This document shows, piece by piece, positions 1-21,103 of a DNA stretch of 64,000 nt (positions are counted from its first letter, which is position 1; each line of letters opens with the position of its first letter). Origin of the DNA: Bellilinea sp. (GTDB taxonomy: Bacteria > Chloroflexota > Anaerolineae > Anaerolineales > Anaerolineaceae); contig JBAZZG010000004.1 of assembly GCA_041658905.1 (NCBI GenBank), positions 147,091-211,090 of the forward strand, given 5' to 3'. The notes beneath the pieces are model-generated. The model saw nothing but the letters and a program-made list of their open reading frames with translations. It was not told where the DNA came from and made no database searches. Both the position numbers and the translations under genes were made by a program.

Positions 1-164
1 GGTGGTCAGTTCAAGCGATTGCTTGGCTGGCGTCGGGCCGGATGAGAAGTGCCCGTCGAAAAGCGCCGCCTTCCTTCTCCACCGATCCTATGGCAATCAA
101 ATTTCCCTCGTTCTTCTCCGTTCCGATCCGTCCTGGTTCGCCTGGTGCGAATTGCAGGTCGTTT

Positions 165-190
165 AACCGAAAGGTTTACCTTTCGGTTTT
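165..190 (+). terminator. Perfect 10-bp hairpin. Either the terminator of an off-window upstream gene or a leader attenuator ahead of ssnA
   Basis: AACCGAAAGG (165-174), loop TTTA, CCTTTCGGTT (179-188), then TTGTGTCGTT. It lies about 40 nt upstream of the ssnA start. The U-tract is weak. Confidence 0.35.
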
Positions 191-231
191 GTGTCGTTAA
201 ATTTCTGAGTGTTCGTTTCTGGAGGGCAGCC

Positions 232-1581
232 ATGATACTTACCAACGGAAAGATTATCACCTGGGAACAGCCCAATCGCATTCTTGAAGGGTATGCGCTG
301 CGAATTGCAGGAAATAAGATCGTTGAAATTACCGGGCAACCAGAAATCCTCGAAAAATACCCGCAGGAAGATCGGTTGGATGCGCATAGCCAATATATCA
401 TGCCTGGGAATATCTGCGCACACACTCACTTCTATGGAGCATTTTCGCGCGGTATGGGAATCCCGGGCCCGGCACCCAAGGATTTTCCTGAAATTCTGGG
501 TAAACTGTGGTGGTCATTGGATAAGGCTCTCACGCTGGATGACGTTCGCTATTCAGCGCTGGTATGTCTAATCGATGCGATTAAACATGGCACAACCACA
601 CTCATCGATCACCATGCTTCACCTAATGCGATCAGCGGTTCACTGTCGGAAATAGCGCTGGCAGTCAAGGAAGCCGGTGTTCGCACCTCGCTCTGCTACG
701 AAGTCACCGACCGCGAGGGGGAGCTGGGCACCAAAGATGGTATCGCCGAGAACGTCCGCTTTATCAACGCAGTAAAGGCGGAAAAAAACGGCAAACTGGC
801 AGCTACTTTTGGCCTGCATGCCAGCCTGACCCTGTCGGAAAAGACACTTGAGGCCTGCCGGGCTGCCTGTCCGGATGACGTCGGTTTCCATGTACACGTT
901 GCCGAACATCCGGTGGATGAATACGACAGCTTGCAAAAATGCGGTGAGCGGGTGGTGGACCGGCTGAAACGGCATGGTATTCTTGGTTCGCGCTCGATAG
1001 CGGTGCATGCCGTCCACGTCGATGTCCGTGAAATCGAATTATTGGCAGCCAGCCAGACCTGGGTGACCCATCAGCCGCGGTCGAACATGAATAATGCGGT
1101 TGGCATGTCTCAGCCGGAAGCTATGATGAGAGCGGGTATCAAGGTGTGCCTGGGGAACGATGGTTTCTCCAATCAGATGTGGCAGGAATGGAAGACCGCT
1201 TACCTGGCGCATAAACTATGGAACCATGACCCGCGCCGGATGTCCGGCACCGATGTGGTCCAGATGGCGGTTTACAATAATGCCTTGTTAGCGGAGCAGC
1301 AATTTGGCGTCGGGCCGATCGGTGTTCTGGCGCCGGGGGCGGAAGCGGACCTTATTTTTGTTGACTATCACCCCTTCACCGAGCTGACCGCCGGCAACTT
1401 GCCGTGGCATATCATTTTTGGCTTCCATGAGAGCATGGTCACTACCACCATGGTTAGTGGGCAAGTGCTCATGCACGACCGGCAGCTGCTCACATTGGAC
1501 GAAGAAAAAATTACGTACGAGGCGCGCAAGCTTTCCGCAGAAACGTGGAAGCGTTACAACGCGATCGCCCAAACCCATTAA
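232..1581 (+). CDS. ssnA: SsnA-type amidohydrolase (putative selenium-dependent hydroxylase-associated aminohydrolase)
   Basis: ATG at 232 is preceded by GGAGGG (221-226). The ORF-track start at 49 is a GTG that adds a 61-aa non-protein-like extension. The product has the amidohydrolase HxH motif (CAHTHF). Blocks IDHHASP and PRSNMNN, and a length of about 449 aa, match my recollection of E. coli SsnA. Confidence 0.8.
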   Translation: MILTNGKIITWEQPNRILEGYALRIAGNKIVEITGQPEILEKYPQEDRLDAHSQYIMPGNICAHTHFYGAFSRGMGIPGPAPKDFPEILGKLWWSLDKALTLDDVRYSALVCLIDAIKHGTTTLIDHHASPNAISGSLSEIALAVKEAGVRTSLCYEVTDREGELGTKDGIAENVRFINAVKAEKNGKLAATFGLHASLTLSEKTLEACRAACPDDVGFHVHVAEHPVDEYDSLQKCGERVVDRLKRHGILGSRSIAVHAVHVDVREIELLAASQTWVTHQPRSNMNNAVGMSQPEAMMRAGIKVCLGNDGFSNQMWQEWKTAYLAHKLWNHDPRRMSGTDVVQMAVYNNALLAEQQFGVGPIGVLAPGAEADLIFVDYHPFTELTAGNLPWHIIFGFHESMVTTTMVSGQVLMHDRQLLTLDEEKITYEARKLSAETWKRYNAIAQTH

Positions 1582-1599
1582 CTTCAGGGAGAACCCATT

Positions 1600-2277
1600 A
1601 TGACTGACACTACTGCAGAAAGATACACGATCGGAATTATTGGCGGTACCGGAAAAGAAGGTAAAGGGCTGGCATACCGCTGGGCAAAAGCCGGGCATAC
1701 GATCATCATCGGTTCGCGCCAGGCCGAAAAAGCTCAGGCTGCGGCCAATGATGTGAATCAAATGCTCGGCAAACAGGATGCAGTGACTGGCCTGGAAAAT
1801 GAAAAGGCCGCAATCCGCGCCGATATCGTCGTTCTGACGGTTCCCTTTGGCGTGCATGTGGATATGTGTGAGCTCTTAAAACCGTTTGTACAGGGTAAAA
1901 TCTTTATCGATGTTACCGTACCTCTGGTTCCTCCAAAAGTGGCCAGGGTGCAGATGCCGCCGGAAGGTAGCGCAGCGCAACAAGCGCAGGCGATTTTAGG
2001 CGATGGTGTGCAGGTGGTATCCGCGTTCCAAAATATTTCCTATGAACACCTCATCCATGACGATGAGGTGGCTTGCGATGTTTTAGTTTGCGGCCCGAAA
2101 GAGGCGCGCGAGAAAGTCATCGGCCTGGTCAAAGATGCGGGACTGGTCGGCTGGAGCGGCGGCGTGATTGAAAACTCGGTTGTAGTGGAAGGGTTAACCT
2201 CGGTTTTGATCGGTTTGAATAAACAATTTGGCATTCAGGATGCCGGTATTCGCATCACCGGCTTACCGCGTCAATAG
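1600..2277 (+). CDS. npdG: NADPH-dependent F420 reductase (Fno/NpdG family)
   Basis: N-terminal Rossmann motif IGIIGGTGKEGKGLA plus overall collinearity with Fno (…IVVLTVP…, C-terminal LNKQFG). AGGGAGAA RBS lies upstream. Confidence 0.8.
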   Translation: MTDTTAERYTIGIIGGTGKEGKGLAYRWAKAGHTIIIGSRQAEKAQAAANDVNQMLGKQDAVTGLENEKAAIRADIVVLTVPFGVHVDMCELLKPFVQGKIFIDVTVPLVPPKVARVQMPPEGSAAQQAQAILGDGVQVVSAFQNISYEHLIHDDEVACDVLVCGPKEAREKVIGLVKDAGLVGWSGGVIENSVVVEGLTSVLIGLNKQFGIQDAGIRITGLPRQ

Positions 2278-2293
2278 TCCGCTTGCAAAATTT

Positions 2294-3064
2294 ATGCAGC
2301 CCCTGATATTTACTCCCATTTCCGATATCCCGCTCATCCAACCAGGAGACGATCTGCCGGCCATCCTGCTCGAAAAAATGGCAGCAGACGGGGTGAAGCT
2401 GTTGGATGGCGATATCCTGGTGCTGGCGCAAAAGATCGTGTCAAAATCCGAAAACCGCCTGGTCAATCTGAATGAGGTGAAACCATCGCAGCGGGCAATA
2501 GAACTGGGCGAAGCAGCCGAAAAAGATCCTCGCTTGGTGGAACTGATGCTACAGGAAAGCCGCAGCGTGCTGCGCGTCCGACCGGGGACCATCATCGTCG
2601 AGCACAGGGCCGGGTTTGTGTGCGCCAATGCGGGTATTGACCATTCCAACGTCGAGGGACGCTACGGCAAGGCGGATGATTGGGTCTTGCTGCTGCCTGA
2701 AAACGCTGACGAATCGGCTGCCCGGATTCGTAGTTCGATTGAATCGCAGACGGGTGCGAAAATCGGGGTCATGATTATCGACTCGCATGGACGCGCCTGG
2801 CGGATTGGCACAGTTGGCATCTCGATTGGTTTCTCCGGAATGCCAGGTCTGGTAGATTTACGCGGACACCAGGATATGTTCGGGTACACCTTGCGGGTAA
2901 CGCAGGTGGCAGCGGCCGACGAGTTGGCTGGTTCAGCATCGCTGGTCATGGGACAGGCGGATGAGCGCGTTCCGGCGGTGCACGTTCGTGGCTTTCCATT
3001 CCCTTTGCGCGAGGGAAAATTTGATGAACTTCACCGGCCAATTGAATTGGACCTGTTCCGCTAA
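2294..3064 (+). CDS. cofE: Coenzyme F420-0:L-glutamate ligase (stand-alone CofE, no nitroreductase domain)
   Basis: Family-typical motifs IPLIQPGDDLP, ILVLAQKIVSKSE, CANAGID and MIIDSHGRAWR. I chose the start at ATG 2294, after the npdG stop. The ORF-track start at 2228 would overlap npdG by 50 nt. Confidence 0.85.
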   Translation: MQPLIFTPISDIPLIQPGDDLPAILLEKMAADGVKLLDGDILVLAQKIVSKSENRLVNLNEVKPSQRAIELGEAAEKDPRLVELMLQESRSVLRVRPGTIIVEHRAGFVCANAGIDHSNVEGRYGKADDWVLLLPENADESAARIRSSIESQTGAKIGVMIIDSHGRAWRIGTVGISIGFSGMPGLVDLRGHQDMFGYTLRVTQVAAADELAGSASLVMGQADERVPAVHVRGFPFPLREGKFDELHRPIELDLFR

Positions 3065-3075
3065 GGGAGCTTGCG

Positions 3076-3624
3076 ATGTACGCCATCATTACTGAACTGG
3101 CGAGTGAATCAGCGCGTGAAGTGGAGCAAATTCGGGGTGATGCTCTGGCCGGTTGCGGGCCCGATCCTGCCCCGCTTCAATGGCCGTTGCACCTCTCGTG
3201 GCAGGGTGCCGAATCCTATTATCTGGATGAGGTCGAACTGCGCATGCGCACAATCGCCAGGACTTTTGCTCCTGTCACTACCCGCATCAATGGTGTGGGC
3301 ATCTTCACCGGCGCAGAGCCAGTTGTTTACCTGTCCGTCACCCGCACACCGGCGTTATCTGCTTTGAATGCTACCCTTTGGGAGGCGTTGTCCCCTCTTG
3401 CCAGATCCGCCAACCGGTATTTTTCCCCGGAAGAATGGGTGCCGCATATCTCTATACTGTATGGCAAAGCGGAAATGAAGGAAGCAATCGCCTGTTTGGT
3501 TGCCAACCTCAGCACCGTGGAGCTGCGGATTGAAATCAAGCTGGATCACATTTATCTTGGGTATTTTCACGGCAATGACCATGGAGGCCTGTATCGTTTT
3601 CCACTGATCGGCAGTGAGGGATAA
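3076..3624 (+). CDS. 2H phosphoesterase superfamily protein (LigT / 2'-5' RNA ligase-like)
   Basis: Two H-x-S/T-type motifs at the expected spacing (HLSW near aa 39, HISIL near aa 124). GGGAG RBS is present. Size of 182 aa fits. The assignment is by motif only. Confidence 0.5.
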   Translation: MYAIITELASESAREVEQIRGDALAGCGPDPAPLQWPLHLSWQGAESYYLDEVELRMRTIARTFAPVTTRINGVGIFTGAEPVVYLSVTRTPALSALNATLWEALSPLARSANRYFSPEEWVPHISILYGKAEMKEAIACLVANLSTVELRIEIKLDHIYLGYFHGNDHGGLYRFPLIGSEG

Positions 3625-3746
3625 TCCCCATTCCCGGCCGAATCGAACCTTACGGTATAATTAAAGGGAAAAATCTGCTGACCGACCCCACCTGATTATT
3701 GTTTACAAATAAAGATCCTGTTTGAACCTGGAGGGTAGACACCGTA

Positions 3747-4361
3747 ATGAGCCTTTGGGCGATTGTACCGGTAAAACCGCTGCGAAAAGCGAAATCTGGT
3801 TTGTCAGACGTATTAACGGAAGATGAAAGAGCATTACTGATCTTTACCATGTTGAGTCAAACCCTGAGGACTTTGAAAGAAGTCCCGGCCATTGATCACA
3901 TTCTGGTTGTCAGCAGCGACTCGGCTGCCCTGGCGATGGCCCGGGAATACGACGCGCGGACACTGCAGGAGGACGGACAGCCTGATCTGAAAATCGCGTT
4001 GAAGAGGGCAGTGGTGGTGGCGAAGATGTACAATGCCGAGAGCTTGTTGATCCTGTCCGCCGACTTGCCGCTGGTCTCCCGCCGGGATATCGAGACGATG
4101 CTGTCGCTGGTAAAAGGAACACCTGCTATCGTTATCGCTCCCGACCGGCATAACGACGGAACCAACGCCATCTATATGAATCCGCCGGACATCATCGATT
4201 GCACCATCGGATCCGGCTCGTATGAAAAGAATTTAAAGAAGGCTCAAAGTAAGGGAATCCAGGTCGAATTATGCCATCTGACTACCCTGGGTCTTGACAT
4301 CGATAAGCCGGAAGACCTGGCTTTACTCCGCCAAATTGAAGCTTTTCAGGTAGATCCCTAG
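3747..4361 (+). CDS. cofC: 2-phospho-L-lactate / EPPG guanylyltransferase (CofC/FbiD)
   Basis: N-terminus [17 protein letters not shown], size of about 204 aa and a GGAGGG RBS. It is adjacent to cofE. Confidence 0.8.
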
Positions 4362-4420
4362 ACCTTTTCTACCACTGCGACCCAATATTCCACCCACAAC
4401 GCACAACACCCGGAGGTACC

Positions 4421-5419
4421 ATGAGTGAAAGAGTAGCACTTTATCTGCAGGATGCTCACGATCTTCGCGACGGACTGGATTATGTTCGTTATGCCGAGGA
4501 ACGCGGTTTTGAAGCGGTCTGGCAGGCCGAAAGCCGGCTGGTCCGGGATGCGATCGTTCCGATGGCCGCTTACGCTGCAGTCACGAAAACATTGAAAGTC
4601 GGATCCGGCGTCATCAACAACTGGACGCGTAATATCGGGTTGCTGGCTTCGACCTTTTTAACCCTGGACGATCTGGCTCCAGACCGCATCATTTGCGGTA
4701 TTGGCGCCTGGTGGGATCCACTCGCCAAAAACGTGGGTATCGATCGTAGAAAACCGCTGACCGCCATGCGCGAGACGGTAACTGTTCTGCGCCGCCTGCT
4801 GAACATGGAACGGGTCAGCTTTGATGGCGAGTTTGTCCATGTATCTGGGATCGAGCTGGATGTGGTTCACGGACGACGCGAACCGCGTAATGTGCCGATC
4901 ATGATTGGCGCTACCGGCGACAATATGATGGAAATGACCGGCGAAATTGGTGACGGTGTAGTATTGAATTATTGCGTGGAGCCAAGCTACAACAGTAAAG
5001 CGCTCGAACTGCTGGATGCCGGCGCCAAAAAATCCGGTCGCCGGGTTGACGACCTGGATCGACCGCAGTTGATCGTGTGTTCGGTAGATCTCGACCATGA
5101 CAAAGCAATTGACTCCACCCGCGGTTTGTTAACCCAATACCTGGCGCAGCAGCCACACATTGCAAAAGCCTCCGGAGTGTCGATGGATGTGGTTGCTCAA
5201 ATTCAGTCTATCCTGGGCTGGCCTGCTACCAAGGAGCAGATCGACAAGGCGAAACATCTGGTACCAGATGACCTGATTACCCGTATCACTGCCTCCGGTA
5301 CACCCGAAGAAGCCCGCGCCAAAGTGGCTGAATATCGTAAAAATGGCTGCACCTGCCCGATCCTCTACCCGGTCGGTGGAGATATCAAGGTGCTTATCGA
5401 TACCTTTGCGCAGCTATGA
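4421..5419 (+). CDS. LLM-class (luciferase-like) F420-dependent oxidoreductase
   Basis: Luciferase-like TIM-barrel N-terminus (…[17 protein letters not shown]…), 332 aa, resembling the Mer/F420-dependent LLM subfamily. GGAGG RBS is present. The substrate is unknown. Confidence 0.7.
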
Positions 5420-5895
5420 GGCAGAAACAAGCCAACGCTCGGCATTGCTTCGTGTGCGGGGTCGATAATCAATTTGGTTTACAACTAAAATTTTACGATA
5501 CGGCTCCCGGGCGTGTCGAAGCCAACTGGATGGTTTCGGAGCAATTTCAGGGGTTCCCCGGGATTGCTCACGGAGGAATTCTGGCGTCGGTGCTCGACGA
5601 GGCTGCCACTCGCACGGTGCTGGGCGCCAATGGTTCCCGGCGGATTGTGGTGACTGCATCGCTGGAGGTGCGTTACCGCAAACCGGTGCCGCTGAATACG
5701 CCGCTAAAGGTGATCGGTGAATTGACCGAAGATAAAGGTGAAATTATTCACGCAACGAGTAGAATAGAAAATGAACAGGGGCAGGTTTTAGCCAATGCGC
5801 GCGCACTCCTGATGGAGGCGCCCGCCGAACTGGCCGGCAAACTGGAATTGGACCCTGAAAATTGGAAAGTGTATCCTGATGGAGATGGAGCATGA
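5416..5895 (+). CDS. PaaI/4HBT-type hotdog-fold thioesterase
   Basis: [15 protein letters not shown] motif within a 159-aa hotdog-size protein. ATGA overlaps occur at both ends (5416-5419 and 5892-5895). Confidence 0.7.
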
Positions 5896-6650
5896 TTAAA
5901 GCCTACTATCGGCCAAAGGACTTGACAGAGGCAGTTGAAATTTTATCGCGCAGCGACGGCGAATACCGCCCGTTGGGCGGCGGAGTGGCCTTGAGCCATA
6001 AGTCTGCCCAAACGATCTCGGTTGTCGATCTGCAATCGCTCGGTCTGAACAGCCTGACACAGGAGGGCCAATTCCTGCAAATTGGGGCAACCACCACATT
6101 AGCGTCGCTGGCCAATTTGGACTATCTCCAACCCGGCCTAAAATCAGCCATCCGTTTGGAAGCCAATAACAATTTGCGCCAGCAGGCGACTGTCGCAGGT
6201 ACGTTGGTCTCCAGTGGAGGGCGATCCACCTTCGGGACTGTGCTGCTGGCACTCGACGCTTTGCTGCATTGGCTGCCGGTCGATCTGGATCAAGCGCTGG
6301 GCGAATGGTTAACGCTGCGCCAGGCTCCGGTGAAGGCTTTGCTCATCAATCGGATACAGTTCGCGCTGAACGCCAGCCTGGCTTTCGATACCATCGGACG
6401 TACTCCGGATGATTTGCCGGTCATTTGCGCCGCTGTTGCAAAATGGCCGTCCGGCCGTACCCGGGTTACCCTGGGGGGATTCGGTGCGGCGCCGATCCTG
6501 GCGCTGGATGCCCCTGAGCCAAGTGGAGCAGAAGTCGCGGTTCGCGATGCTTTGTCACGGGCAGCGGATCCATGGGCCAGCGCCGAGTACCGGCAAGAAG
6601 CCGGAGCCAGATTGGTGCTGCGACTGATGGGTCAGTTACAGCCGGTTTAG
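5892..6650 (+). CDS. Molybdenum hydroxylase FAD-binding subunit (YgfM/CoxM-like)
   Basis: Its 252 aa match the size of E. coli YgfM. The N-terminus (YYRPKDLTEAVEIL…PLGGG) is typical of the FAD_binding_5 domain. It lies directly upstream of the FeS-Moco fusion subunit. Confidence 0.7.
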   Translation: MIKAYYRPKDLTEAVEILSRSDGEYRPLGGGVALSHKSAQTISVVDLQSLGLNSLTQEGQFLQIGATTTLASLANLDYLQPGLKSAIRLEANNNLRQQATVAGTLVSSGGRSTFGTVLLALDALLHWLPVDLDQALGEWLTLRQAPVKALLINRIQFALNASLAFDTIGRTPDDLPVICAAVAKWPSGRTRVTLGGFGAAPILALDAPEPSGAEVAVRDALSRAADPWASAEYRQEAGARLVLRLMGQLQPV

Positions 6651-6668
6651 GCAAGATTCGTTTGCAAA

Positions 6669-9600
6669 ATGAAAGAAGCTTCTATGATGATTTACTTCAC
6701 GCTGAACGGCGATCTGGTCGAATGGGAAGCTGATCCATCCGAGTCGCTGCTCTCCGTTTTACGCCGGCACGGGATGTTTGGCGTCAAATCCGGTGGTTGC
6801 GCCAGGGGTGAATGCGGCGCCTGCACCGTGCTGTTGGATAAGAAACCTGTCAACTCATGTACCTTGCTGGCCGCTCAGGTTACCGGTCATCAGGTGGAGA
6901 CGATCGAAGCCATGGGCGAGCACCCCGAACAGGGATGGAAAAAAACCTCAGGGCTGCATCCGATCCAGCAGGCAATGGTGGAAAGCGGCGCCATTCAGTG
7001 CGGCTACTGCACGCCAGCTTTTGCACTGGCAGCCCGCGCGCTGATCGAGAAAAACCCGGATCCCAGCGAAGCCGAAGTCCGAGCGGCAATCTCCGGCATA
7101 CTTTGCCGCTGCACAGGCTATTTAAAGCCGGTCCAGGCCATTTTGCGCGCAGCTGCCGTTATGCGCGGTGAAACGGTTCCGCCGATCATGGGTACGCCCG
7201 AAACCGAGACGCAAGGTTGGCCGGTAAGCATGCCACTCCCCGGCGACCAACCGGAAAGCAGCGCTGGCCTGGCTGAAACCACCAGCCAGACCCAAGTGAT
7301 GCCAAAGATATGGACTTCACAGGATGCCAGGGAGAAACCCCGCACCCATATCGGCCGCCCCGAGGTGAAAGTGGATGCGGTCAAATTGGTGCAGGGCAAG
7401 CCGGCCTTCTCCGCGGATATCGAGAAGCGCGGTATGTTGGTAGCAAAAGTGCTGCATTCGCCGTTAGCCCACGCCTGGATCAAATCCATTGACCTGAGTG
7501 ATGCCCGCGCGCTGCCAGGTGTCGCCGCGGTTTTGTGCTACAAAGATATCCCGCGGGTTATCTATTCGACCGCCGGCCAATCTGACCCTATACCTGGACC
7601 GTTGGACGCTTTTTCGCTGGACCGGAAAGTGCGTTTTGTGGGTGACCGGGTAGCCTTTGTCGCGGCAGAGACTGCAGAAATTGCAGAACAGGCGCTGCGT
7701 TTGATCAGGGTCGAATACGAAGAGTTGCCCGCAATTCTGGATTCGCGCGAATCCATGCAGCCCGGGTCCGTCCGCATCCATGATGAGCCGGAGTTTGTAA
7801 ATTTTGCTGATTCCAATCCGACCAAAAACGTTGCTGCTGAAATTCGCATCGATATTGGCGATATCGAAAAGGGATTTGCCGAGGCTGACCGGATTTACGA
7901 GGAAGAATACACGGTACCCAAGGTGCAGCAGGCGCATATCGAACCGCACGTGGTGGTTACCTACTGGGATGAGGATGACCGGTTGGTCATTCGCACCAGC
8001 ACCCAGGTACCTTTCCATGCCCGCCGCATCCTTGCCCCAGTATTGGGCTTGCCGGTTAAACGCATCCGCGTGATTAAACCGCGCATTGGCGGCGGTTTCG
8101 GTGGCAAACAGGAAGTTTTGATCGAGGACGTGGCAGCCCATCTGACGATCGCCACCAGCCGCCCGGTCATCTATGAAACTTCCCGTGAGGAAGAATTTAT
8201 CGCCGCCCGGTCGCGCCACTCAATGCGCGTCCGCATGAAAACCGGCGTCAAACTGGATGGCACGATAACGGCCAACGCCATGTATGCGCTCTCTGACACC
8301 GGGGCCTACGGCTGCCATGCCCTGACGGTGACCGGCAATACCGGCCATAAAGCCATGGCGCTGTATGTCGGGGATGGACCCTACCGCTTATCGCCCAATA
8401 TTCGCTTCTATGCCGATGTGGTGTATACCAATACCCCGCCAGCCGGAGCGTTCCGCGGTTACGGGGTTCCGCAGGGATTTTGGCCGCTCGAACGGCAGAT
8501 CGAGCACATCGCCCGCGATCTTGGCCTGGACTCGATCGATTTCCGCCTGAAGAACACGCTGCGTTCCGGCGAGCTGCATCCCTTTAGCACAGCCTGGAGT
8601 GAAGGCCGCGATCCGCGCCCGGAAATTGTTCACACCGTCGGGCTGGAGGAGTGCGTCCGGCAAGCCAAGGCCGCCATTGGTTGGGATCAAAAATATCCGA
8701 ACGCCGAATGGCATGCTGTACCGGGCAAACCGCACTTGCGCCGTGGAATCGGTGTGGCAACCGTCATGCAAGGGACAGCTATCCCATATCTGGATATGGG
8801 CGGCGCCAGCATAAAAATGAACGACGATGGCTCGTTCAACCTGTTGGTCGGCGCCACCGATCTTGGCACAGGTTCCGATACGGTGCTGGCGCAAATGGCA
8901 GCCGAGGTGCTTGGCGTACCGGTAGATGACATTCTGGTTTATTCCTCGGATACTGACTTCACCCCCTTCGATAAGGGTGCGTATGCCTCCAGCACCACCT
9001 ATATCTCCGGCGCTGCGGTGGTTAGAGCGGCTGAAATGGCGGCAGAACGCATCAAAGTTCGTGCGGCCCGGTTGATCAATAAACAGGCTACGGGGCCGGA
9101 AGTAACTGAAGACGACATTGTGCTGGGTAACAAATACGCAAGCACGCGAGACGGCCGCGCAGTAACCATGCAGGAGATTGCCTTGAACGCGTTGCATCAT
9201 GACGACCAGGAACAAATTATGGGCACCGGGTCATATTATTCGCCGGTATCCCCGCCGCCCTTTGCCGCCCAGTTTGCCGAAGTCACGGTTGATGTGGAGA
9301 CCGGCAAGGTGGTCGTGGACCGGTTGGTAATGGCGGTCGATTCAGGCATCATTGTCAATCCGATCACCGCTTCTGGCCAGATTGAAGGCGGGATGACCCA
9401 GGCGTTGGGTTATGCGGTATGCGAGGAAATGGTGTATGATCAAAAAGGCCAGGCGCGCGAGACTGACCTGGATGATTACCATATCTTCCGGGCGGACGAG
9501 ATGCCGGCGCTCGAGACCATTTTCGTGCAGACCTACGAACCTTCACACCCATTCGGCGTCAAAGCCGTTGCTGAAATACCCATGGATGGCGTAGCGCCAG

Positions 9601-9701: not shown

Positions 9702-9723
9702 TTGTGGAAAGAGGTATCGCAGC

Positions 9724-10515: not shown

Positions 10516-10525
10516 TGGAGTAGCT

Positions 10526-11950
10526 ATGTGGCATGACACGCTTACCGCAGCCAACATCGAAGATGTTTTACAGGTCCTGCATCAGAAAGGCGAAAAGGCC
10601 CGCATCATTGCCGGCGCAACCGATTTGATTCTGGAAATGGAACGCGGCGTGCGCAAAGGGATCGAATTGCTGGCCGATATCTCGCGCATCCCAGGCCAGG
10701 ATCAAATCACGCTGGATGAAGACGGGATCATCCATTTAGGACCGCTGGTCACCCACAATCACTGCGCAGCTTCAAAACTAATTCAGGAATCGGCTTTCCC
10801 ACTGGCGCGCGCTTGCTGGGAAGTAGGCTCACCCCAGATTCGCAATCGCGGCACAGTCGCTGGTAACTTGATCACAGCTTCTCCTGCCAATGACACCATC
10901 ACCCCACTGGTGGCATTGGGCGCGTCGGTGACGTTACGCTCCAGCTCTGGTACACGGAGCGTTCCGCTCGATCAGTTTTATCTGGGCGTGCGTCGGACGG
11001 TGATGCAGCCGGATGAAATGCTGGTGGATATCACGTTCCCGGCTCTTCAAGCCAATCAGCACGGCACGTTCGTCAAATTTGCCTTAAGGCGGGCGCAAGC
11101 CATCTCTCTGGTGAATGTTGCGGTGATCGTGACGATGAAAGGTGATAATGTTCAGGCCGCTGCAATCACCCTCGGGGCGGTGGCTCCAACCATCATCCAC
11201 GCTAAAGATGCCGAAGAATATCTGATTGGCCAGAAATTGACTCCGGAGGTCATTGCCGCCGCCGCGGCCAAAACGATGGGCGCTTCCCGCCCGATCTCGG
11301 ATGTGCGCGGTTCAGCTCAATACCGCCGCCGTATGGTCGAGGTGATTACCCGTCGGGCATTAACAGCGCTGGCAACCGGGCGGGAGAAAATGGAATTCCC
11401 GGTCAAACCGGTGCTGCTGCGTGGAAGCAGTAACGGTAAAATTACCTTCTTCGGGCCATCCGTGCTGCACACCCGGCAGGATGCTATCGTAACCACGATC
11501 AACGGAAAGGGTTATCGCTTCGAGAGCGGTCAAAATAAGACCTTGCTGCGCTTGCTGCGCGAAGAAGCCCAGTTGATCGGCACCAAGGAAGGCTGCGCTG
11601 AGGGTGAGTGCGGCGCCTGCACGGTCTTTTTAGACGGCGTGGCGGTAATGAGTTGCATGGTACCCGCAGCGCGGGCGCACGGCGCGGTGATCGTCACGGT
11701 GGAAGGATTGGCTGCGAACGGCTCCATGCACCCGGTGCAGCAGGCGTTTATCGAGCAAGGCGCCGTTCAATGCGGTTACTGCACTCCAGGATTTATCATG
11801 TCTGCCGCGAAATTGCTGGAAGAACGGCCCAATCCAAGCAAGAATGAAATCCAGCAAGCGCTTACAGGCAATTTGTGCAGGTGTACAGGGTACTATACGA
11901 TCATTCAGGCAGTCGAGCGCGCAGCACAATTGGGAACAGGGAGTAAATAA
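10526..11950 (+). CDS. Molybdenum hydroxylase fused FAD-binding + [2Fe-2S] subunit
   Basis: N-terminal FAD_binding_5/CO_deh_flav_C part (IIAGATDLILEM…SDVRGSAQYRR). C-terminal ferredoxin part (CAEGECGACTVFLDG, QCGYCTPGF, CRCTGY). Confidence 0.85.
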   Translation: MWHDTLTAANIEDVLQVLHQKGEKARIIAGATDLILEMERGVRKGIELLADISRIPGQDQITLDEDGIIHLGPLVTHNHCAASKLIQESAFPLARACWEVGSPQIRNRGTVAGNLITASPANDTITPLVALGASVTLRSSSGTRSVPLDQFYLGVRRTVMQPDEMLVDITFPALQANQHGTFVKFALRRAQAISLVNVAVIVTMKGDNVQAAAITLGAVAPTIIHAKDAEEYLIGQKLTPEVIAAAAAKTMGASRPISDVRGSAQYRRRMVEVITRRALTALATGREKMEFPVKPVLLRGSSNGKITFFGPSVLHTRQDAIVTTINGKGYRFESGQNKTLLRLLREEAQLIGTKEGCAEGECGACTVFLDGVAVMSCMVPAARAHGAVIVTVEGLAANGSMHPVQQAFIEQGAVQCGYCTPGFIMSAAKLLEERPNPSKNEIQQALTGNLCRCTGYYTIIQAVERAAQLGTGSK

Positions 11951-12315
11951 TGACCAAATATTCGAATTACAACCGTGGTCGTTCAAGAGAGGAAAAAGAA
12001 GCGATTCACCCCATCTGGCGCGGGGTCGGATTTATCTTCCTGATCCTGGCGCCGGTCATGGGCTATTATGGGTCATTAGTCCTGATCGAGGAGAATAAAG
12101 AAAAAGGCTGGTTCAACATCCCACCCGACCTGTTGGCTCCCGGCGCGGACCCTGATTTGTACTTAAAAATCGGGTTGACCATACTGTTGGGATTCCTCGT
12201 CTTTTTCGTTTTTCAATTTGTTGGAATCCTGATTTACCGCATGGTAGGCCCGGAACGGTATGGACCAATGGATATACCGCCGATTAGCGGCGGTAAAATC
12301 AAAAAGTCCCGTTAA
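11950..12315 (+). CDS. Small two-TM membrane protein, function unknown
   Basis: A TAATG overlap joins it to the upstream stop. Two clear hydrophobic helices (GVGFIFLILAPVMGYYGSLVLI; IGLTILLGFLVFFVFQFVGILIY). It fills the only gap between the FAD/FeS and Moco subunit genes. Confidence 0.55.
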   Translation: MTKYSNYNRGRSREEKEAIHPIWRGVGFIFLILAPVMGYYGSLVLIEENKEKGWFNIPPDLLAPGADPDLYLKIGLTILLGFLVFFVFQFVGILIYRMVGPERYGPMDIPPISGGKIKKSR

Positions 12316-12352
12316 TTTTGAAATTTGTAGCAAAACCAGGAGGTGGATGCCC

Positions 12353-14584
12353 ATGACGACCATCGGGCAATCTGTACCGCGCATCGATGCTGTAGGAAAA
12401 GTTAAAGGTGAAACATTGTATCCGGGTGATATTAACCTGGACAATCAGGCCTACCTTAAGATTTTGTTTTCGGGGCGGCCGCATGCCATCATTCGCAGCA
12501 TGAACACTGACAAAGCCAGATCGCTGCCCGGAGTATTAGCGGTTTTCACCGCTGAAGACGTCCCGGTGAATGAATATGGGTTAATCGTCAAGGACCAACC
12601 GGTTTTGTGCGGCCTCAATTCTACCAAGCCCTATGCGGAGAGGGTGCGTTTTGCCGCCGATAACGTCGCCCTGGTAGTCGCCGAGAGCGAAGAAATTGCT
12701 GCCGAAGCCTGCAACCTGATCGAGGTCGAGTATGAAGATTTACCGATCCTTACCGATCCGCGCATTGCTTTTCAGGAAGGGCAGCCGTTCATTCATCCGA
12801 ATCACGGCTCGAATGTTTTTGTCCATTACCGCATCCGCAAAGGGGATGCGAAAACTGCTTTAGCCAAGGCTGATGTGGTTATCGAAGGGTATTATGAAAC
12901 GCCAGCCCAGGAGCACGCCTACCTTCAACCTGAAGCCGGCATCAGCTTTGTAGACGAAAGTGGGGTCGTGACCGTTGTGGTCGGCGGGCAATGGACGCAT
13001 GAAGACCGCGAGCAGGTAGCCCATGCACTCGGCTTGCCCGAAGAAGAAGTACGCATCATCTACCCGGCCATCGGCGGCGCCTTTGGCGGTCGCGAGGATA
13101 TGTCTGTGCAGATCGTCCTGGCGCTGGCTGCCTGGAAGCTGCACCAACGCGGTATCAATCGGCCGGTAAAAACGATCTGGTCGCGGGAAGAGTCGATTAT
13201 CGGGCATCACAAACGCCACCCCTACTACCTTCACGCCACCTGGGGCGCGACCAGGGACGGCAAGGTGGTCGCTGCCGAGGTTGAGGTGATTTCTGATAGC
13301 GGCGCTTATGCTTATACCTCCTCCAAGGTACTCGGGAATGCCACCCTGATGTGCACCGGGCCGTACGAAATCCCGAACGTCAAAGTGGATGCCTATACGG
13401 TTTACACCAACAATATCCCAAACGGCGCATTTCGCGGCTTTGGCGGTCCGCAGGGAGCTTTCGCGGCCGAATCGCAGATGAATAAGCTGGCTCAGGCACT
13501 GGGGATGGATCCGGTCGAAATTCGGATGCGTAACCTGCTGGACGAGGGCAGTCTGTTGTCCGTTGGAACACCGCTGCCCAAAGGCGTCAGCATCAAGAAA
13601 GTAACAGCCGTCTGCGCGGAAGCAGCAGGTTGGGTGAAGGGTAAAGAAGGCTGGACTCGTCCCCAGGGTTACCTGGAAGATGTGCCCGGCAGCCCGCATT
13701 TGAAGCGTGGGATCGGATTTGCGTGTTCGTTTAAAAATGTAGGTTTCTCGTTCGGCGCACCCGAAAATTGCTGGGCAATCGTTGAATTGGAAGGGAATGG
13801 CGAAATCGAGGCTGCCAGGCTCTACCACGCAGGGGCTGAAGTTGGGCAGGGGTCGCATACCGTGTTTGCCCAGATGACCGCTGAGGCAGTCGGGCTGCCG
13901 CTGGAAAAAGTTCAGGTTATTGCTGCTGACACCGCGACGTCGCTTAATTCGGGCAGCGTCTCTGCATCGCGTATGACTTTTATGGCTGGCAATGCCATTC
14001 GGGGCGCAGCTGAACGCGCGCTGGAGAAATGGAATAACGAAGAGCGTCCAGCGCGCGCTGAATTCCAATATCGCCCGCCGCGAACCACACCTTTGGATCC
14101 GGAGACGGGAAAATCAGAGCCTAATTTTTCATACGGTTATGTCGCCGAAGCCATCGAGATGGAGGTGGACATCGAAACCGGACAGGTGCGTCTGGTGAAA
14201 GTCACCTGTGCAGACGATGTCGGGAAAGCAGTAAACCCGCTGTTGGTGCGTGGCCAGATCGAAGGAGCTGTCGTCCAGGCTGCTGGTTATGCTGTGTTGG
14301 AGAACTTTATCCAGCAGGACGGCCAGGTACAGACCAAGACACTCTCGACCTACCTGATCCCGACCATACTTGACATCCCTGACCAGGTTGAATCATTGAT
14401 TCTGGAATACCCGGATCCCATTGGTCCCTGGGGCGCGCGGGGCATGGGTGAGATGCCCTACCTGCCATTGGTACCAGCCGTGTCTGCCGGAATTCAACAC
14501 GCTACCGGGAAATGGTTTGACCAGTTCCCTTATACGCCGGAACGAATTCTGATGGGACTGGAAGAAACGGGCGATTCGAAATGA
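12353..14584 (+). CDS. Xanthine dehydrogenase-family molybdopterin-binding large subunit
   Basis: I chose the start at ATG 12353, with AGGAGGTGG at 12338-12346. ATG 12347 abuts the RBS, and the ORF-track start at 12260 overlaps the small membrane-protein gene. Motifs are IGQSVPRIDAVGKVKGE, AIGGAFGGRED and a C-terminal ARGMGEMP. Confidence 0.85.
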   Translation: MTTIGQSVPRIDAVGKVKGETLYPGDINLDNQAYLKILFSGRPHAIIRSMNTDKARSLPGVLAVFTAEDVPVNEYGLIVKDQPVLCGLNSTKPYAERVRFAADNVALVVAESEEIAAEACNLIEVEYEDLPILTDPRIAFQEGQPFIHPNHGSNVFVHYRIRKGDAKTALAKADVVIEGYYETPAQEHAYLQPEAGISFVDESGVVTVVVGGQWTHEDREQVAHALGLPEEEVRIIYPAIGGAFGGREDMSVQIVLALAAWKLHQRGINRPVKTIWSREESIIGHHKRHPYYLHATWGATRDGKVVAAEVEVISDSGAYAYTSSKVLGNATLMCTGPYEIPNVKVDAYTVYTNNIPNGAFRGFGGPQGAFAAESQMNKLAQALGMDPVEIRMRNLLDEGSLLSVGTPLPKGVSIKKVTAVCAEAAGWVKGKEGWTRPQGYLEDVPGSPHLKRGIGFACSFKNVGFSFGAPENCWAIVELEGNGEIEAARLYHAGAEVGQGSHTVFAQMTAEAVGLPLEKVQVIAADTATSLNSGSVSASRMTFMAGNAIRGAAERALEKWNNEERPARAEFQYRPPRTTPLDPETGKSEPNFSYGYVAEAIEMEVDIETGQVRLVKVTCADDVGKAVNPLLVRGQIEGAVVQAAGYAVLENFIQQDGQVQTKTLSTYLIPTILDIPDQVESLILEYPDPIGPWGARGMGEMPYLPLVPAVSAGIQHATGKWFDQFPYTPERILMGLEETGDSK

Positions 14585-14606
14585 ACTCAGGACTGGTGCA
14601 GGTATT

Positions 14607-15416
14607 ATGAGTCTGGTGGTGTGTATTCGTGGTGGTGGTGACCTGGGCAGTGGTGCGGCATTGCGTTTGCACCGCGCCGGGATGCGGGTTGTCGTTTGTG
14701 AACTGGCAAAGCCCCTGGTCGTCCGCCGGACAGTCGCCTTTGCCGAGGCAATCTATTCAGCGGAAATCACAATTGAAGGGGTACGCGCCAAATGCGTGTC
14801 TGGTCACGAAGAAGTTATAAAGGCCTGGGCTGAAGGTATCTTGCCAGTTATTGAAGACCCGAATCTGGCGCTTTTAACCTGGCTTAAACCGGATGTACTT
14901 GTCGACGCCCGACTTTTGAAAAAACCGGTGGAATTTCCATTGCAGCCATCTCCGTTGGTTATCGGACTTGGTCCGGGTTTTACCGTTGGGGTGAACTGCC
15001 ATGCGGTGGTCGAAACCAAACGCGGTCACAATTTGGGACGGGTGCACTGGCATGGCGCCGGTGAGCCCGATTCTGGAATTCCGGAGATGGTGCTCGGGTA
15101 TGTAGAGGAGCGCGTGTTGCGCGCACCGGTCGATGGCCATTTGAAAGGCCTGGTTACGATCGGCCAACGGGTGGTAAAAGGTCAACCGCTGGCTGAAGTT
15201 GACGGCCAATTGCTGACAGCCGGTTTCGATGGCGTGGTGCGCGGGCTGCTAGCTAACGATGTAGCCGTCAAACGCGGCATGAAAGTTGGCGATCTTGATC
15301 CACGCCTGGACGAAAACCTTGTTACCCTGGTCTCTGACAAATCTCTGGCAGTGGGAGGCGGGGTGCTGGAAGCTGTGCTCTCCCGTCCGGAACTGCGCGC
15401 CAGGTACAGCGGGTAA
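14607..15416 (+). CDS. yqeB: YqeB-family selenium-dependent molybdenum hydroxylase system protein
   Basis: N-terminus VVCIRGGGDLGSGAALRLHRAGMRVVVCELAKPLVVRRTVAFAEAIY matches my recollection of the short YqeB/EF2563 family (TIGR03309). It is adjacent to YqeC. Confidence 0.7.
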   Translation: MSLVVCIRGGGDLGSGAALRLHRAGMRVVVCELAKPLVVRRTVAFAEAIYSAEITIEGVRAKCVSGHEEVIKAWAEGILPVIEDPNLALLTWLKPDVLVDARLLKKPVEFPLQPSPLVIGLGPGFTVGVNCHAVVETKRGHNLGRVHWHGAGEPDSGIPEMVLGYVEERVLRAPVDGHLKGLVTIGQRVVKGQPLAEVDGQLLTAGFDGVVRGLLANDVAVKRGMKVGDLDPRLDENLVTLVSDKSLAVGGGVLEAVLSRPELRARYSG

Positions 15417-15425
15417 AGGTTGACC

Positions 15426-16766
15426 ATGCGGCTGCTTGAAGCACTCAGAGCCGGCAGTCAATCCAGAATCGCTTTCGTGGGGGCGGGGGGCAAAACGACA
15501 GCCATGTTTTCCCTGGCGCGCCAACTGGCTGCGCCGATGATTTGCCTGAATACTGCTCATCTGTCATTGGAACAGGCAAAACTCGCCGACAAACACCTGA
15601 TTGTTCAGGATCTGAGCGATGTCGAGCGTTTATTTCAGTCCCCGCTGGTTGGGGTAACCCTCATAACCGGGCCTGGCGACGGTCGCGGGCGGCTGATGGG
15701 ATTGCATACGGCTGCCGCTGAAAAAATCAAAGATCATGCAGATGAATATCATCTGCCCATCCTGGTCGAGGCGGATGGCTCGCGGATGCTGCCCCTCAAA
15801 GCGCCGGCGGCCCATGAGCCGCCCATACCTGCCTGGGTCGAACAAGTTGTGGTTGTCGCGGGCCTTTCTGCGTTGGGTAAGCCGCTCACCGGGCAGTGGG
15901 TGTATCAACCGGAGGTTTTTGCGCAGTTAAGCGGTGCACAGCCAGGGCAGCCAATCCTGACTCGGCACTTGGTGGCCACCTTGCTTCACCCCCAGGGCGG
16001 CTTGAAAAACATCCCGGCAGGAGCGCATCGGGCTGTGCTTGCCAACCAACTGGATGCATGTAACTTACCTGAGGATGATTTGTATCGCGAGTTGGCGGAC
16101 TTGACCCGCGAATTTGGGTTGGTTATGGCTGGGTCCGTCCAGAAGACCGCCGCGGAGCAGGTTAAATGGCGCTGTGAGCCTGTGGGAGGCGTTGTATTAG
16201 CTGCAGGTGAGTCAATACGCATGGGAACCGTCAAACAACTGCTACCGTGGCGTGGGAAGCCGTTGGTACGCCATGTGGCAGAGAAAGCGCTGGCTGCCGG
16301 GTTGGACCCGGTGGTGGTTGTCACCGGTGCTGCCGCGGAGGGTATTGAGAAGGCTGTGGATGGGCTGCCCGTGGAGCTGGTGTACAACCGCGATTGGGAA
16401 AGCGGGCAGGCCAGTTCGATCCGTGTCGGCATTCAAGTTTTGAAAGCCCGGTGCGGCGCCGCGGTTTTTTTGCTCAGCGACATGCCGCAGTTCCCGGTGA
16501 GCCTGATCGAGGCCGAATTGGAAATTCACCGGCGCGAATCGGTTGAGATTGTTGTTCCGCGGGTAAATGGTCAACGAACAAACCCGGTATTGTTTGACCG
16601 CTCCACCTTTGCCGAACTGGTTGGGTTGGTGGGGGACACGGGCGGGCGAGCCTTGTTTGACCGCCACCCGCTGCGCTGGCTGGATTTGGAAGATGCCCAG
16701 GATTTGCTGGACGTCGATACCCCGGCTGACTATCAGCGTTTGGTGGACGAGGGTGAGGATGGTTAA
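15426..16766 (+). CDS. yqeC: Fusion protein: YqeC-type selenium cofactor biosynthesis protein + MocA-like molybdenum cofactor cytidylyltransferase
   Basis: The N-terminal half has the YqeC-like P-loop IAFVGAGGKTTAMFSLA and …LVEADGSR… From about nt 16180 there is a MobA/MocA-like nucleotidyltransferase (VGGVVLAAGESIRMG…LPWRGKPLV…LSDMPQ). I prefer ATG 15426, with AAAGG 6 nt upstream. A TTG at 15420 is also possible. Confidence 0.7.
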   Translation: MRLLEALRAGSQSRIAFVGAGGKTTAMFSLARQLAAPMICLNTAHLSLEQAKLADKHLIVQDLSDVERLFQSPLVGVTLITGPGDGRGRLMGLHTAAAEKIKDHADEYHLPILVEADGSRMLPLKAPAAHEPPIPAWVEQVVVVAGLSALGKPLTGQWVYQPEVFAQLSGAQPGQPILTRHLVATLLHPQGGLKNIPAGAHRAVLANQLDACNLPEDDLYRELADLTREFGLVMAGSVQKTAAEQVKWRCEPVGGVVLAAGESIRMGTVKQLLPWRGKPLVRHVAEKALAAGLDPVVVVTGAAAEGIEKAVDGLPVELVYNRDWESGQASSIRVGIQVLKARCGAAVFLLSDMPQFPVSLIEAELEIHRRESVEIVVPRVNGQRTNPVLFDRSTFAELVGLVGDTGGRALFDRHPLRWLDLEDAQDLLDVDTPADYQRLVDEGEDG

Positions 16767-17358
16767 GGTTGCAGCGATTGTCCTCGCCGCCGGTGCATCC
16801 AGGCGCATGAAACAGGCAAAAATGACCCTGTCGTATAAGGGTAGCACGGTGTTGGGGACAGTGTTGACCGTCTTGCATAGTGCCGGGATCGATTCACTCA
16901 TTGTTGTGATCGGCGGCGCAAAAGATGGCGTTGAAATGACGCTGTCCGAACTGCCTTTTGAGGTTATCCGCGCTTATAACCCGGAGTACGAGCACACCGA
17001 AATGCTGGATTCACTGCAAATTGGAATGCAGCACCTTCCGGATGAAACGGATGCCTTTTTGATTGCATTGGGCGACCAGCCGCAGATTCAGGGGGAGGTT
17101 GTCCAGGCCATTTTGCAGGAATACACCAAGACCGGGAACAGCTTGATTATTCCAAGCTACCGGATGCGCCGCGGGCACCCCTGGATGGTAGGAAAAGTCC
17201 ATTGGGCAGACCTGAGAGATTTACATTCCGGTCAAACCATGCGCAATTTTATCCAGCAGTACCAAAAACAGATCCATTACCTGGTGGTTGATACCCAGAG
17301 TATTTTGGAAGATATGGACACCCCGGAAGATTACCAGCGCGCCATCGGTGAAGCCTAA
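16759..17358 (+). CDS. mocA: MocA-like nucleotidyltransferase (molybdenum cofactor cytidylyltransferase family), second copy
   Basis: The start ATG at 16759 overlaps the upstream stop by 8 nt (16759-16766, ATGGTTAA). N-terminus VAAIVLAAGASRRM and the motif ALGDQPQ. The ORF-track start at 16567 lies inside the upstream gene. Confidence 0.75.
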   Translation: MVKVAAIVLAAGASRRMKQAKMTLSYKGSTVLGTVLTVLHSAGIDSLIVVIGGAKDGVEMTLSELPFEVIRAYNPEYEHTEMLDSLQIGMQHLPDETDAFLIALGDQPQIQGEVVQAILQEYTKTGNSLIIPSYRMRRGHPWMVGKVHWADLRDLHSGQTMRNFIQQYQKQIHYLVVDTQSILEDMDTPEDYQRAIGEA

Positions 17359-17422
17359 TATTGTTAGCGCAATCGATTATCTATCATAAAAACTGCGCAT
17401 AGCCAATATTATAACTGTTATT

Positions 17423-18589: not shown

Positions 18590-18670
18590 GCATTACCCCA
18601 GCGCTCATGGATGATGCCGGTCATAGGGGAGGAGCGAAGTATAATTTGTCGCAACATTGACGAGGAAAGC

Positions 18671-21089: not shown

Positions 21090-21103
21090 ATCCTCACGGG
21101 AGA

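Follow-up and report, generated by a model that had tools for sequence, protein, structure and literature searches.

A proposed Anaerolineales version of the anaerobic reductive urate pathway merged with a coenzyme F420 module

Introduction

The DNA analysed here is a 64-kb stretch (“the window”) from a Bellilinea-like member of the Anaerolineales (Chloroflexota), and the locus under study is a block of 16 genes at positions 232-17358, in which molybdenum hydroxylases and their maturation factors are combined with genes for the supply and recharge of coenzyme F420. The reading that we favour, and that our analysis makes on balance probable, is that this block represents the Anaerolineales version of the upper anaerobic reductive urate pathway (also called the 2,8-dioxopurine or “yanthine” pathway), combined with a module that supplies and recharges F420. 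A Mer-like oxidoreductase of the luciferase-like monooxygenase (LLM) class is the candidate to substitute for the reductase YgfK, because the window appears to contain all parts of the upper pathway except a dearomatising reductase and carries an F420-class oxidoreductase and F420 genes instead. More tentatively, and with slightly less than an even chance for the proposals taken together, the LLM would be the first F420H2-dependent 2,8-dioxopurine reductase, the Anaerolineales would make F420 largely for purine dearomatisation, and the steps following the amidohydrolase SsnA may differ from those in Escherichia coli or Clostridium. If this is true, the genes for F420 synthesis and recharge would lie inside a catabolic operon because F420 mainly drives purine dearomatisation.

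F420 has known functions in methanogenesis, in the redox stress response of actinobacteria and in the synthesis of antibiotics. According to a 2021 review of the coenzyme, in which the words purine and xanthine are absent, what it does in producers outside the actinobacteria, such as Chloroflexi, has not been studied by experiment. The locus would offer a concrete job for F420 in the abundant anaerobic Chloroflexi, namely to provide the hydride that breaks purine aromaticity. If true, F420/LLM would be a third cofactor-distinct solution, besides NADH/YgfK and ferredoxin/UacX, to the hardest step of the anaerobic urate pathway, which is itself of interest for engineered uricolytic probiotics. 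The layout is unusual in that cofactor synthesis, cofactor recharge, the cofactor-using enzyme and the molybdenum/selenium maturation factors are found in one block, which therefore forms a compact unit for heterologous reconstitution.

Haft and Self reportedly described a marker set for the selenium-dependent molybdenum hydroxylase trait, and a preliminary description of the window, made from the sequence, framed the block generically as such a set. This framing is outdated, since the E. coli locus is now known as a reductive urate pathway: in 2025 two groups showed that the gene set of E. coli and Clostridium encodes the anaerobic reductive degradation of urate (Li et al. 2025, PMC12507026; Liu et al. 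2025, bioRxiv 10.1101/2025.04.24.650524). Xanthine dehydrogenase (XDH) produces urate, XdhD-YgfM (DOPDH) converts urate to 2,8-dioxopurine, YgfK or the PydA-like UacX dearomatises this compound, and SsnA opens the ring, without which the unfavourable reduction would not be drawn forward (PMC12507026; 10.1101/2025.04.24.650524). The pathway as defined uses two selenium-dependent hydroxylases, XDH and DOPDH, both of which need SelD (PMC12507026; 10.1101/2025.04.24.650524).

The preliminary description also stated that no system had been described in which such a pathway is merged with F420. This claim of novelty was overstated, because Li et al. 2025 (PMC12507026) had already published the core idea as a bioinformatic remark. 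Using a network of SsnA neighbourhoods, these authors flagged “a putative F420-dependent reductase” (PF00296) near Chloroflexota SsnA, reported only as co-occurrence within 15 genes, and the Chloroflexota were said to lack YgfK/UacX-type enzymes (PMC12507026). The window is an example of the cluster type flagged in that study, two versions of which are all that the literature searched yielded on a link of F420 with SsnA or purine degradation. New beyond Li et al. 2025 are the embedded genes for F420 synthesis and recharge, the breadth and variants of the synteny, and the loop signature of the XdhD-type enzyme, as well as the split YqeB, the fused YqeC-MocA, the missing lower pathway, the coexisting reductases in one subclade and the contexts of distant LLM relatives.

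Organization of the gene block

The gene set was derived from a listing of open reading frames (ORFs) followed by refinement of the start sites. Family assignments were judged against the trusted cut-offs of NCBIfam, and Pfam, the PDB and Rfam were also compared. The 16 genes, with the molybdenum cofactor abbreviated as Moco, are the following:

232-1581, + strand: SsnA, amidohydrolase that would open the ring of the reduced purine (role after Li et al. 2025); NF005540, TIGR03314
1600-2277, + strand: Fno/NpdG, NADPH:F420 oxidoreductase, which would regenerate F420H2; TIGR01915, PF03807 (F420_oxidored)
2294-3064, + strand: CofE, F420-0:gamma-glutamyl ligase; TIGR01916; alternative starts at 2228 and 2240
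3076-3624, + strand: 2H phosphoesterase (LigT-like) with both HxS motifs; PF13563, score 60 against a cut-off of 27
3747-4361, + strand: CofC, guanylyltransferase of F420 tail synthesis; TIGR03552
4421-5419, + strand: Mer-like F420-class LLM, proposed F420H2-dependent 2,8-dioxopurine reductase; PF00296, 213 bits
5416-5895, + strand: hotdog-fold (4HBT/PaaI-like) protein with an N-terminal CxxC; PF03061, 43 against 20.6
5892-6650, + strand: short FAD-binding subunit, YgfM-like, 252 amino acids; PF00941, best family TIGR03312
6669-9701, + strand: [2Fe-2S]-molybdopterin fusion of the XdhD type, 1010 amino acids, proposed reductase of urate to 2,8-dioxopurine (DOPDH)
9724-10515, + strand: XdhC-like Moco insertion chaperone; TIGR02964, 120 and thus below the cut-off of 162
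10526-11950, + strand: FAD and [2Fe-2S] fusion subunit of the second XDH-family enzyme; XdhB-type and XdhC(FeS)-type models in one protein
11950-12315, + strand: 121-amino-acid protein (orf121) with two predicted membrane helices; no family
12347-14584, + strand: molybdopterin subunit of the second XDH-family enzyme, proposed xanthine/hypoxanthine dehydrogenase; best family PucD, 580 and thus below the cut-off of 784
14607-15416, + strand: YqeB, selenium-cofactor marker; TIGR03309
15420-16766, + strand: YqeC-MocA fusion; TIGR03172, TIGR03310
16759-17358, + strand: second MocA-type Moco cytidylyltransferase; TIGR03310

The spacing of these genes ranges from -8 to +122 nt, with the widest gap from 3624 to 3747, and four junctions overlap (LLM/hotdog, hotdog/FAD subunit, FAD-FeS/orf121 and YqeC-MocA/MocA). 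The preliminary description was right about the 16 co-directional genes on the + strand; the 2H phosphoesterase, the hotdog protein and the membrane ORF went unmentioned in it. Ribosome-binding sites are seen as GGAGG before ATG 232 (ssnA), AGGAGG before ATG 12347 (molybdopterin subunit) and GAGG upstream of 16759 (MocA). The arrangement is more than chance, since it recurs in dozens of related genomes.

Conservation of the cluster in Anaerolineales

Related loci were centred on the LLM gene, and comprise the best 80 of at least 588 LLM-matching stretches, picked by LLM similarity and each taken with a flank of ±10 kb. They were compared by tblastn with the window proteins and by clustering of all ORFs, and synteny was counted over the loci with enough flank (57 loci with at least 8 kb upstream, and 49 for the reach of XDH genes). 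The LLM proteins of these best 80 stretches show 80-98% identity, and nearly all carry the label Anaerolineales, Anaerolineaceae, Bellilinea or similar. The window LLM is 98% identical to a protein on a contig of “Chloroflexi bacterium 1MN72D_53_20”, and contigs of GCA_054640995.1 encode an SsnA identical to that of the window.

The gene order SsnA-Fno-CofE-(CofD)-CofC-LLM is kept in 53-54 of the 57 loci (SsnA in 53, Fno and CofE in 54 each), and CofC lies directly upstream of the LLM in 72 of 75. The molybdopterin subunit of an XDH is encoded within 8-10 kb in 33 of 49 loci, and the XDH genes follow the core as they do in the window, precede SsnA, or do both. As this linkage is kept across the Anaerolineales, the F420 genes are a stable part of the cluster type, and the linkage of F420 genes, ssnA and XDH genes put forward in the preliminary description extends well beyond a single genome. 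YgfK and UacX are absent from the window and, in most of the 80 loci, from the ±10 kb around the LLM.

Molybdenum hydroxylases, selenium cofactor and SsnA

With the E. coli ygeW-ygeX-ygeY-hyuA-yqeA / yqeB-yqeC-mocA / ygfK-ssnA-ygfM-xdhD locus the window has in common SsnA, a putative XdhD-type fusion with the E606 loop, a YgfM-like FAD subunit, a second XDH, YqeB, YqeC and MocA. It differs from that locus in lacking YgfK, in having a Mer-like F420 LLM, and in the embedded fno, cofE and cofC genes. Furthermore, YqeB is split and YqeC is fused to MocA, HyuA, YgeW, YgeX, YgeY and YqeA are not found nearby, and a 2H phosphoesterase, a hotdog protein and a small membrane protein are added.

The 1010-amino-acid FeS-Moco fusion is collinear with E. 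coli XdhD over 956 amino acids at 36% identity, and it harbours the XdhD-only loop with the equivalent of E606 (AWSEGRDP versus AIGEGKAP); neither E. coli XdhA nor the molybdopterin subunit of the second enzyme has this loop. Glu606 of XdhD has been proposed to orient urate (Li et al. 2025, PMC12507026). The fusion scores 681 with TIGR03313, below the cut-off of 1102, and the FAD subunit scores 66 with TIGR03312, its best family, below the cut-off of 241; the latter protein aligns end to end with E. coli YgfM (27% identity, E 8e-17). The block encodes two enzymes of the XDH family, and does so beside the markers YqeB and YqeC.

YqeB (TIGR03309, 302 against 220) and YqeC (TIGR03172, 137 against 73, residues 17-215 of the fusion) exceed their trusted cut-offs, and SsnA, which is 34% identical to E. 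coli SsnA, exceeds both of its own (NF005540, 520 against 444; TIGR03314, 484 against 455.5). The MocA domains stay below the TIGR03310 cut-off of 186, with 159.5 for residues 257-441 of the fusion and 137.9 for the second MocA. E. coli YqeB corresponds to two genes of the block, as the XdhC-like protein matches its residues 1-259 (37%) and the YqeB protein its residues 270-524 (45%). No SelD is found among the annotated ORFs of at least 150 amino acids in the 64-kb window. The preliminary description had assigned to the block the yqeB-yqeC-mocA-ssnA-ygfM-xdhD content of the E. coli locus without YgfK, and had named the YqeB, YqeC and SsnA models as a check. The YqeB, YqeC and SsnA scores bear this out, the XdhD and YgfM alignments agree with it, and tblastn with E. 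coli YgfK gives no match in the 64-kb window.

The F420 supply genes

Fno/NpdG (TIGR01915, 202 against 149.8), CofE (TIGR01916, 259 against 180.65) and CofC (TIGR03552, 151 against 105) all score above the trusted cut-off, and the LLM is nearest to F420-class structures; the F420 genes recognised in the preliminary description are therefore genuine. CofC, CofE and Fno are shared with bacterial F420 operons (cofC/fbiD, cofD/fbiA, cofE/fbiB) that include Fno. In the window, catabolic enzymes are encoded on both sides of them, neither cofD nor the nitroreductase domain is present, and a 2H phosphoesterase fills that position.

In the related loci, CofD (TIGR01819, 301 against 257) is encoded between CofE and CofC in 45 of 56 cases, for example at L003:8397-9371 just upstream of cofC, and it is missing at the corresponding position 3625-3746 in the lineage of the window and in ten other loci. 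The region between CofE and CofC also carries a nitroreductase domain like the C-terminal part of FbiB in 30 loci, and a PPOX-class F420 enzyme (TIGR03618) in 18. The 2H phosphoesterase, encoded within the run of F420 genes, is present there in 22 related loci and together with the nitroreductase domain in only 5. A function in the chemistry of the F420 tail is possible.

The LLM protein and its relatives

The PDB chains closest to the LLM are six of Mer (E down to 1e-37), followed by FGD (two), Adf and fHMAD. Mer (PDB 8QQ8, 1Z69, 1EZW, 1F07) provides both the nearest solved structures and the nearest curated family, and shares with the LLM the luciferase-like TIM-barrel family and the F420 class. 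The window LLM lies far under the Mer equivalog cut-offs (170 against 276 and 169 against 349), and likewise under that of Rv3093c (123 against 214); it is bacterial, has no C1-pathway context and is predicted to use another substrate. Its orthologues form a very tight group: more than 8000 database clusters gave a score, with at least 86% identity among the matches listed. Within this group, identity is at least 80%, and the next full-length relatives in a library of representatives at 50% identity reach at most 51%. Judged by its sequence, the LLM is an F420-class enzyme outside every characterised subfamily, because families and structures of F420-dependent LLMs are nearest to it, all cut-offs are missed, and its group is tight and isolated.

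A different reading of these similarities would make the LLM a true Mer-type methylene-tetrahydromethanopterin (or methylene-tetrahydrofolate) reductase of one-carbon (C1) metabolism, or a dehydro-F420-0 reductase required for F420 synthesis, in either case with no role in purine metabolism. Mer is indeed the best match in NCBIfam as well as in the PDB, the JGI annotation calls many of the orthologues Mer, the LLM adjoins cofC almost throughout, and the window, unlike 30 of its relatives, has no FbiB C-terminal nitroreductase domain. Yet, a true Mer was rejected for scores so far below the equivalog cut-offs, and no other tetrahydromethanopterin or C1 genes are located nearby. Equally, a stand-in for the dehydro-F420 reductase of FbiB was rejected, because the LLM and the FbiB C-terminal domain are present together in 30 loci. 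Moreover, relatives of 42-48% identity reside with amidohydrolases and XDH, some of them without F420-biosynthesis genes. We regard this reading as very improbable. A structural model of the LLM (AlphaFold2, from an alignment of 24 sequences of at least 86% identity) was too poor to use, with a mean predicted local distance difference test score (pLDDT) of 50.5.

The more distant LLM relatives are found in the following contexts. At 42% identity, P0132 (21 contigs) is accompanied by a GntR regulator, an amidohydrolase with SsnA as its best family, a three-subunit XDH, a dihydropyrimidinase/hydantoinase and an M20 hydrolase. The hydantoinase scores 445 with TIGR02033, above the cut-off of 393, and is 38% identical to E. 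coli HyuA. The 42%-identity LLM heads the cluster L092:10001-19192 (also L093 and L094; 48% GC), with no F420-biosynthesis genes in view. P0125 (47%) has as neighbours a HyuA-like protein (E 2e-70) and an SsnA-like protein (30%), and the gene for P0124 (48%) shares a stop/start overlap with that of a TRZ/ATZ amidohydrolase. At P0128 (46%) the order Fno-CofE-nitroreductase-CofD-CofC-LLM is kept, XdhC follows downstream, and the upstream genes encode an 8-oxoguanine deaminase (680 against 532), a Nudix protein and a hotdog protein. P0121 (51%), the closest relative outside the group, sits on a 1.9-kb contig, which gives no context. Since LLM relatives of 42-48% identity adjoin amidohydrolases, a hydantoinase and XDH, the pairing “reduce, then hydrolyse an N-heterocycle” is, as far as gene neighbourhoods tell, a trait of the whole LLM clade and not only of the lineage of the window.

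Proposed pathway and alternative explanations

From the observed family assignments, the gene order and its conservation, we infer every substrate and the direction of electron flow on the grounds of homology to E. coli and C. sporogenes enzymes, and because the LLM would supply the only step left without an enzyme. The second XDH-family enzyme (10526-14584) would oxidise hypoxanthine or xanthine to urate, from which the XdhD/YgfM-type enzyme (5892-9701) would strip the 6-oxo group to yield 2,8-dioxopurine. Both hydroxylases would receive cytidylylated, selenium-bearing Moco by means of MocA (two copies), the XdhC-like chaperone, YqeB and YqeC. The Mer-like LLM (4421-5419) would then pass a hydride from F420H2 to the purine ring and thereby achieve the dearomatisation for which E. 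coli uses YgfK and C. difficile uses UacX. Chemical reasoning suggests an imine-type reduction at C6=N1, and imine-type reduction is a reaction type known for F420-dependent LLMs. SsnA (232-1581) would immediately hydrolyse the unstable reduced product and pull the reaction forward. Fno (1600-2277) would recharge F420H2 from NADPH, and CofC and CofE, in most relatives along with CofD, would build the F420 tail.

The variant of C. difficile and C. sporogenes, in which UacX takes the place of YgfK, presents the dearomatising reductase as an interchangeable part, with SsnA and the selenium-dependent hydroxylases as the constant ones. UacX is an FMN/FeS enzyme with electrons thought to come from ferredoxin, whereas the candidate of the window is a TIM-barrel LLM that would take a hydride from F420H2. 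The preliminary description had hypothesised that a later step of purine-type catabolism uses F420 as its reductant; this remains the best-supported reading, and the step would be the ring dearomatisation, with replacement of YgfK.

Several observations weigh against a complete F420-dependent urate pathway at this locus. A cofD gene is found by tblastn nowhere in the 64-kb window, and no FO synthase (CofG/CofH or FbiC) is present among the window ORFs of at least 150 amino acids or the recurrent ORF families of the 80 loci. The LLM stays below the cut-off of every curated subfamily of F420-dependent LLMs, including its 15 best NCBIfam families, all of which are of this kind. About a third of the loci (16 of 49) have no XDH gene within 8-10 kb. 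HyuA, YgeW/UacY, YgeX, YgeY and YqeA are all missing from the 64-kb window, and the same holds, at a query coverage of at least 50%, for the ±10 kb around the LLM in the 80 loci, except for one YgeY match. Finally, in one subclade, two reductases are encoded in the same operon, so that the LLM is possibly not simply redundant with the canonical type, in which case it would serve another function. The missing downstream genes may be encoded elsewhere in the genome; alternatively, the reactions that follow SsnA may differ, given that the cluster is not accompanied by genes for a hydantoinase, YgeW, YgeX or YgeY.

Some of these observations would also fit an adjacency by inheritance, in which a self-contained F420 operon includes SsnA and the LLM for work on another N-heterocycle (e.g., a pterin, flavin or pyrimidine derivative), and the XDH and selenium genes are mere neighbours in some lineages. 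The core is kept in the 16 loci without an XDH gene within reach, the downstream uricolytic genes are absent in all sampled loci, and the LLM is conserved as would befit a core enzyme more than an accessory catabolic one. Its median identity across loci is 84%, compared to 63% for SsnA, 72% for XdhD, 66-72% for the XDH subunits, 59% for Fno and 48% for CofC, and between the window and L003-L080 the identities range over 80-88% for the LLM, 56-73% for SsnA, 42-69% for Fno and 31-63% for CofC; this excess is in part a selection bias, as the loci were chosen on LLM similarity, and the remainder is without explanation. On the other hand, the score of SsnA exceeds the equivalog cut-off of its family, and the characterised enzyme of that family uses reduced 2,8-dioxopurine as substrate. 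In two thirds of the loci the core has XDH genes on one side or the other, in several arrangements, which speaks for selection and not for frozen synteny. In addition, distant LLM relatives without F420-biosynthesis neighbours still adjoin genes for XDH, hydantoinase and SsnA-like proteins. An adjacency by inheritance is therefore unlikely in our view.

The subclade with two reductases bears on a further possibility, namely that the LLM does belong to the purine pathway but catalyses another F420-dependent step, either by reducing another purine or intermediate or by working in the oxidative direction and making F420H2. Dearomatisation would then be left to another enzyme, such as a dihydropyrimidine dehydrogenase (DPD)/YgfK-like fusion or a protein encoded elsewhere. 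In L052, L060, L062, L073 and L080, a DPD/YgfK-like fusion of about 840 amino acids and a second SsnA are inserted between CofC and the LLM (e.g., L073:5453-9315). The fusion comprises a GltD/YgfK-like FAD domain, a PreA/DHODH-like FMN domain and two [4Fe-4S] clusters, and the second SsnA (NF005540, 547-550 against 444) is encoded immediately before the LLM. These loci depart from the statement of Li et al. 2025 that the Chloroflexota lack YgfK/UacX-type enzymes.

A pair of reductases side by side suggests that they are not redundant, as this possibility would have it. However, most loci, the window among them, have no such reductase within reach, and the E. coli pathway comprises only two redox steps, the other one of which is covered by the XdhD-type enzyme. 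L062 keeps the LLM after losing the first SsnA, which is compatible with an LLM that works with the second SsnA. We judge this division of labour to be about as unlikely as an inherited adjacency, or slightly more so. The insertion of reductase and SsnA also implies that a canonical module was drawn to the F420 operon, which supports a shared pathway.

Boundaries, small genes and leader sequence

Downstream, the block is bordered by an S41 peptidase gene on the - strand (17423-18589). Upstream, a divergent M20 dipeptidase gene is located just outside the window, followed by housekeeping genes. This M20 protein was considered as an equivalent of YgeY and ruled out, as it is of the dipeptidase type (NF006053, 525 against 441). 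Its gene is found beside a set of housekeeping genes (DUF1385, YbeY and others), and only within a single subclade, and therefore looks like inherited synteny. Scans for promoters and terminators gave the same counts as in shuffled sequence and are thus uninformative on operon structure. Rfam scans of window positions 1-20000 and of the ssnA leader gave no match, and hence no known purine or other riboswitch.

The ssnA leader contains one further feature:

165-190, + strand: terminator-like hairpin in the ssnA 5' leader, AACCGAAAGG-TTTA-CCTTTCGGTT, then TTGTG; seen in the sequence and folded

This hairpin is strong, has a T-rich tail and lies about 40 nt 5' of the ssnA start, in a leader without an upstream co-directional gene. 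It recurs in L001 and L004, and L006 has a different hairpin with a T-run. The hairpin may be a transcription attenuator, for which it is a candidate by its sequence and position. A Nudix hydrolase gene lies directly 5' of ssnA in 13 loci.

Orf121 is always encoded between the FAD-FeS and the molybdopterin subunit of the second XDH, as seen in 21 loci, and has the motifs HPIWRGVG and RYGPxDxP. Its hydropathy reaches a maximum of 2.6 (Kyte-Doolittle, 19 residues), and it has no match in Pfam or NCBIfam. It may tether the second XDH to the membrane or constitute an accessory subunit. In 18 relatives, a gene for a DHH-family Mn-dependent pyrophosphatase, not present in the window, is placed between the XdhD-type gene and xdhC (e.g., L003:14834-16180). 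The hotdog gene overlaps the genes of the LLM and of the YgfM-like FAD subunit by 4 nt each and occurs in 17 related loci. A hotdog gene also accompanies the LLM relative of 46% identity in L091, and no part in a purine pathway is evident for the protein.

The remainder of the window

Between 17.4 and 64 kb, the ORFs of at least 150 amino acids include no selD, cofD, cofG/H, hyuA or ygeW/X/Y, and none is tied to selenium, F420 or purine-ring cleavage. AllH, a subunit of oxamate carbamoyltransferase, belongs to anaerobic allantoin and purine end-product metabolism. At 39675-41816, a putative cyclase (PF04199) is encoded on the - strand and a 318-amino-acid protein with a C-terminal AllH domain on the + strand, with no partner subunits nearby. 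At 19806-23632 on the - strand, an 842-amino-acid DEAD/DEAH helicase with an MrfA zinc-binding domain and an inserted HNH nuclease domain adjoins a 427-amino-acid exonuclease of the RNase_H_2 superfamily. By its domains this pair looks like a DNA repair pair of the MrfAB type, in which the HNH insertion would be unusual.

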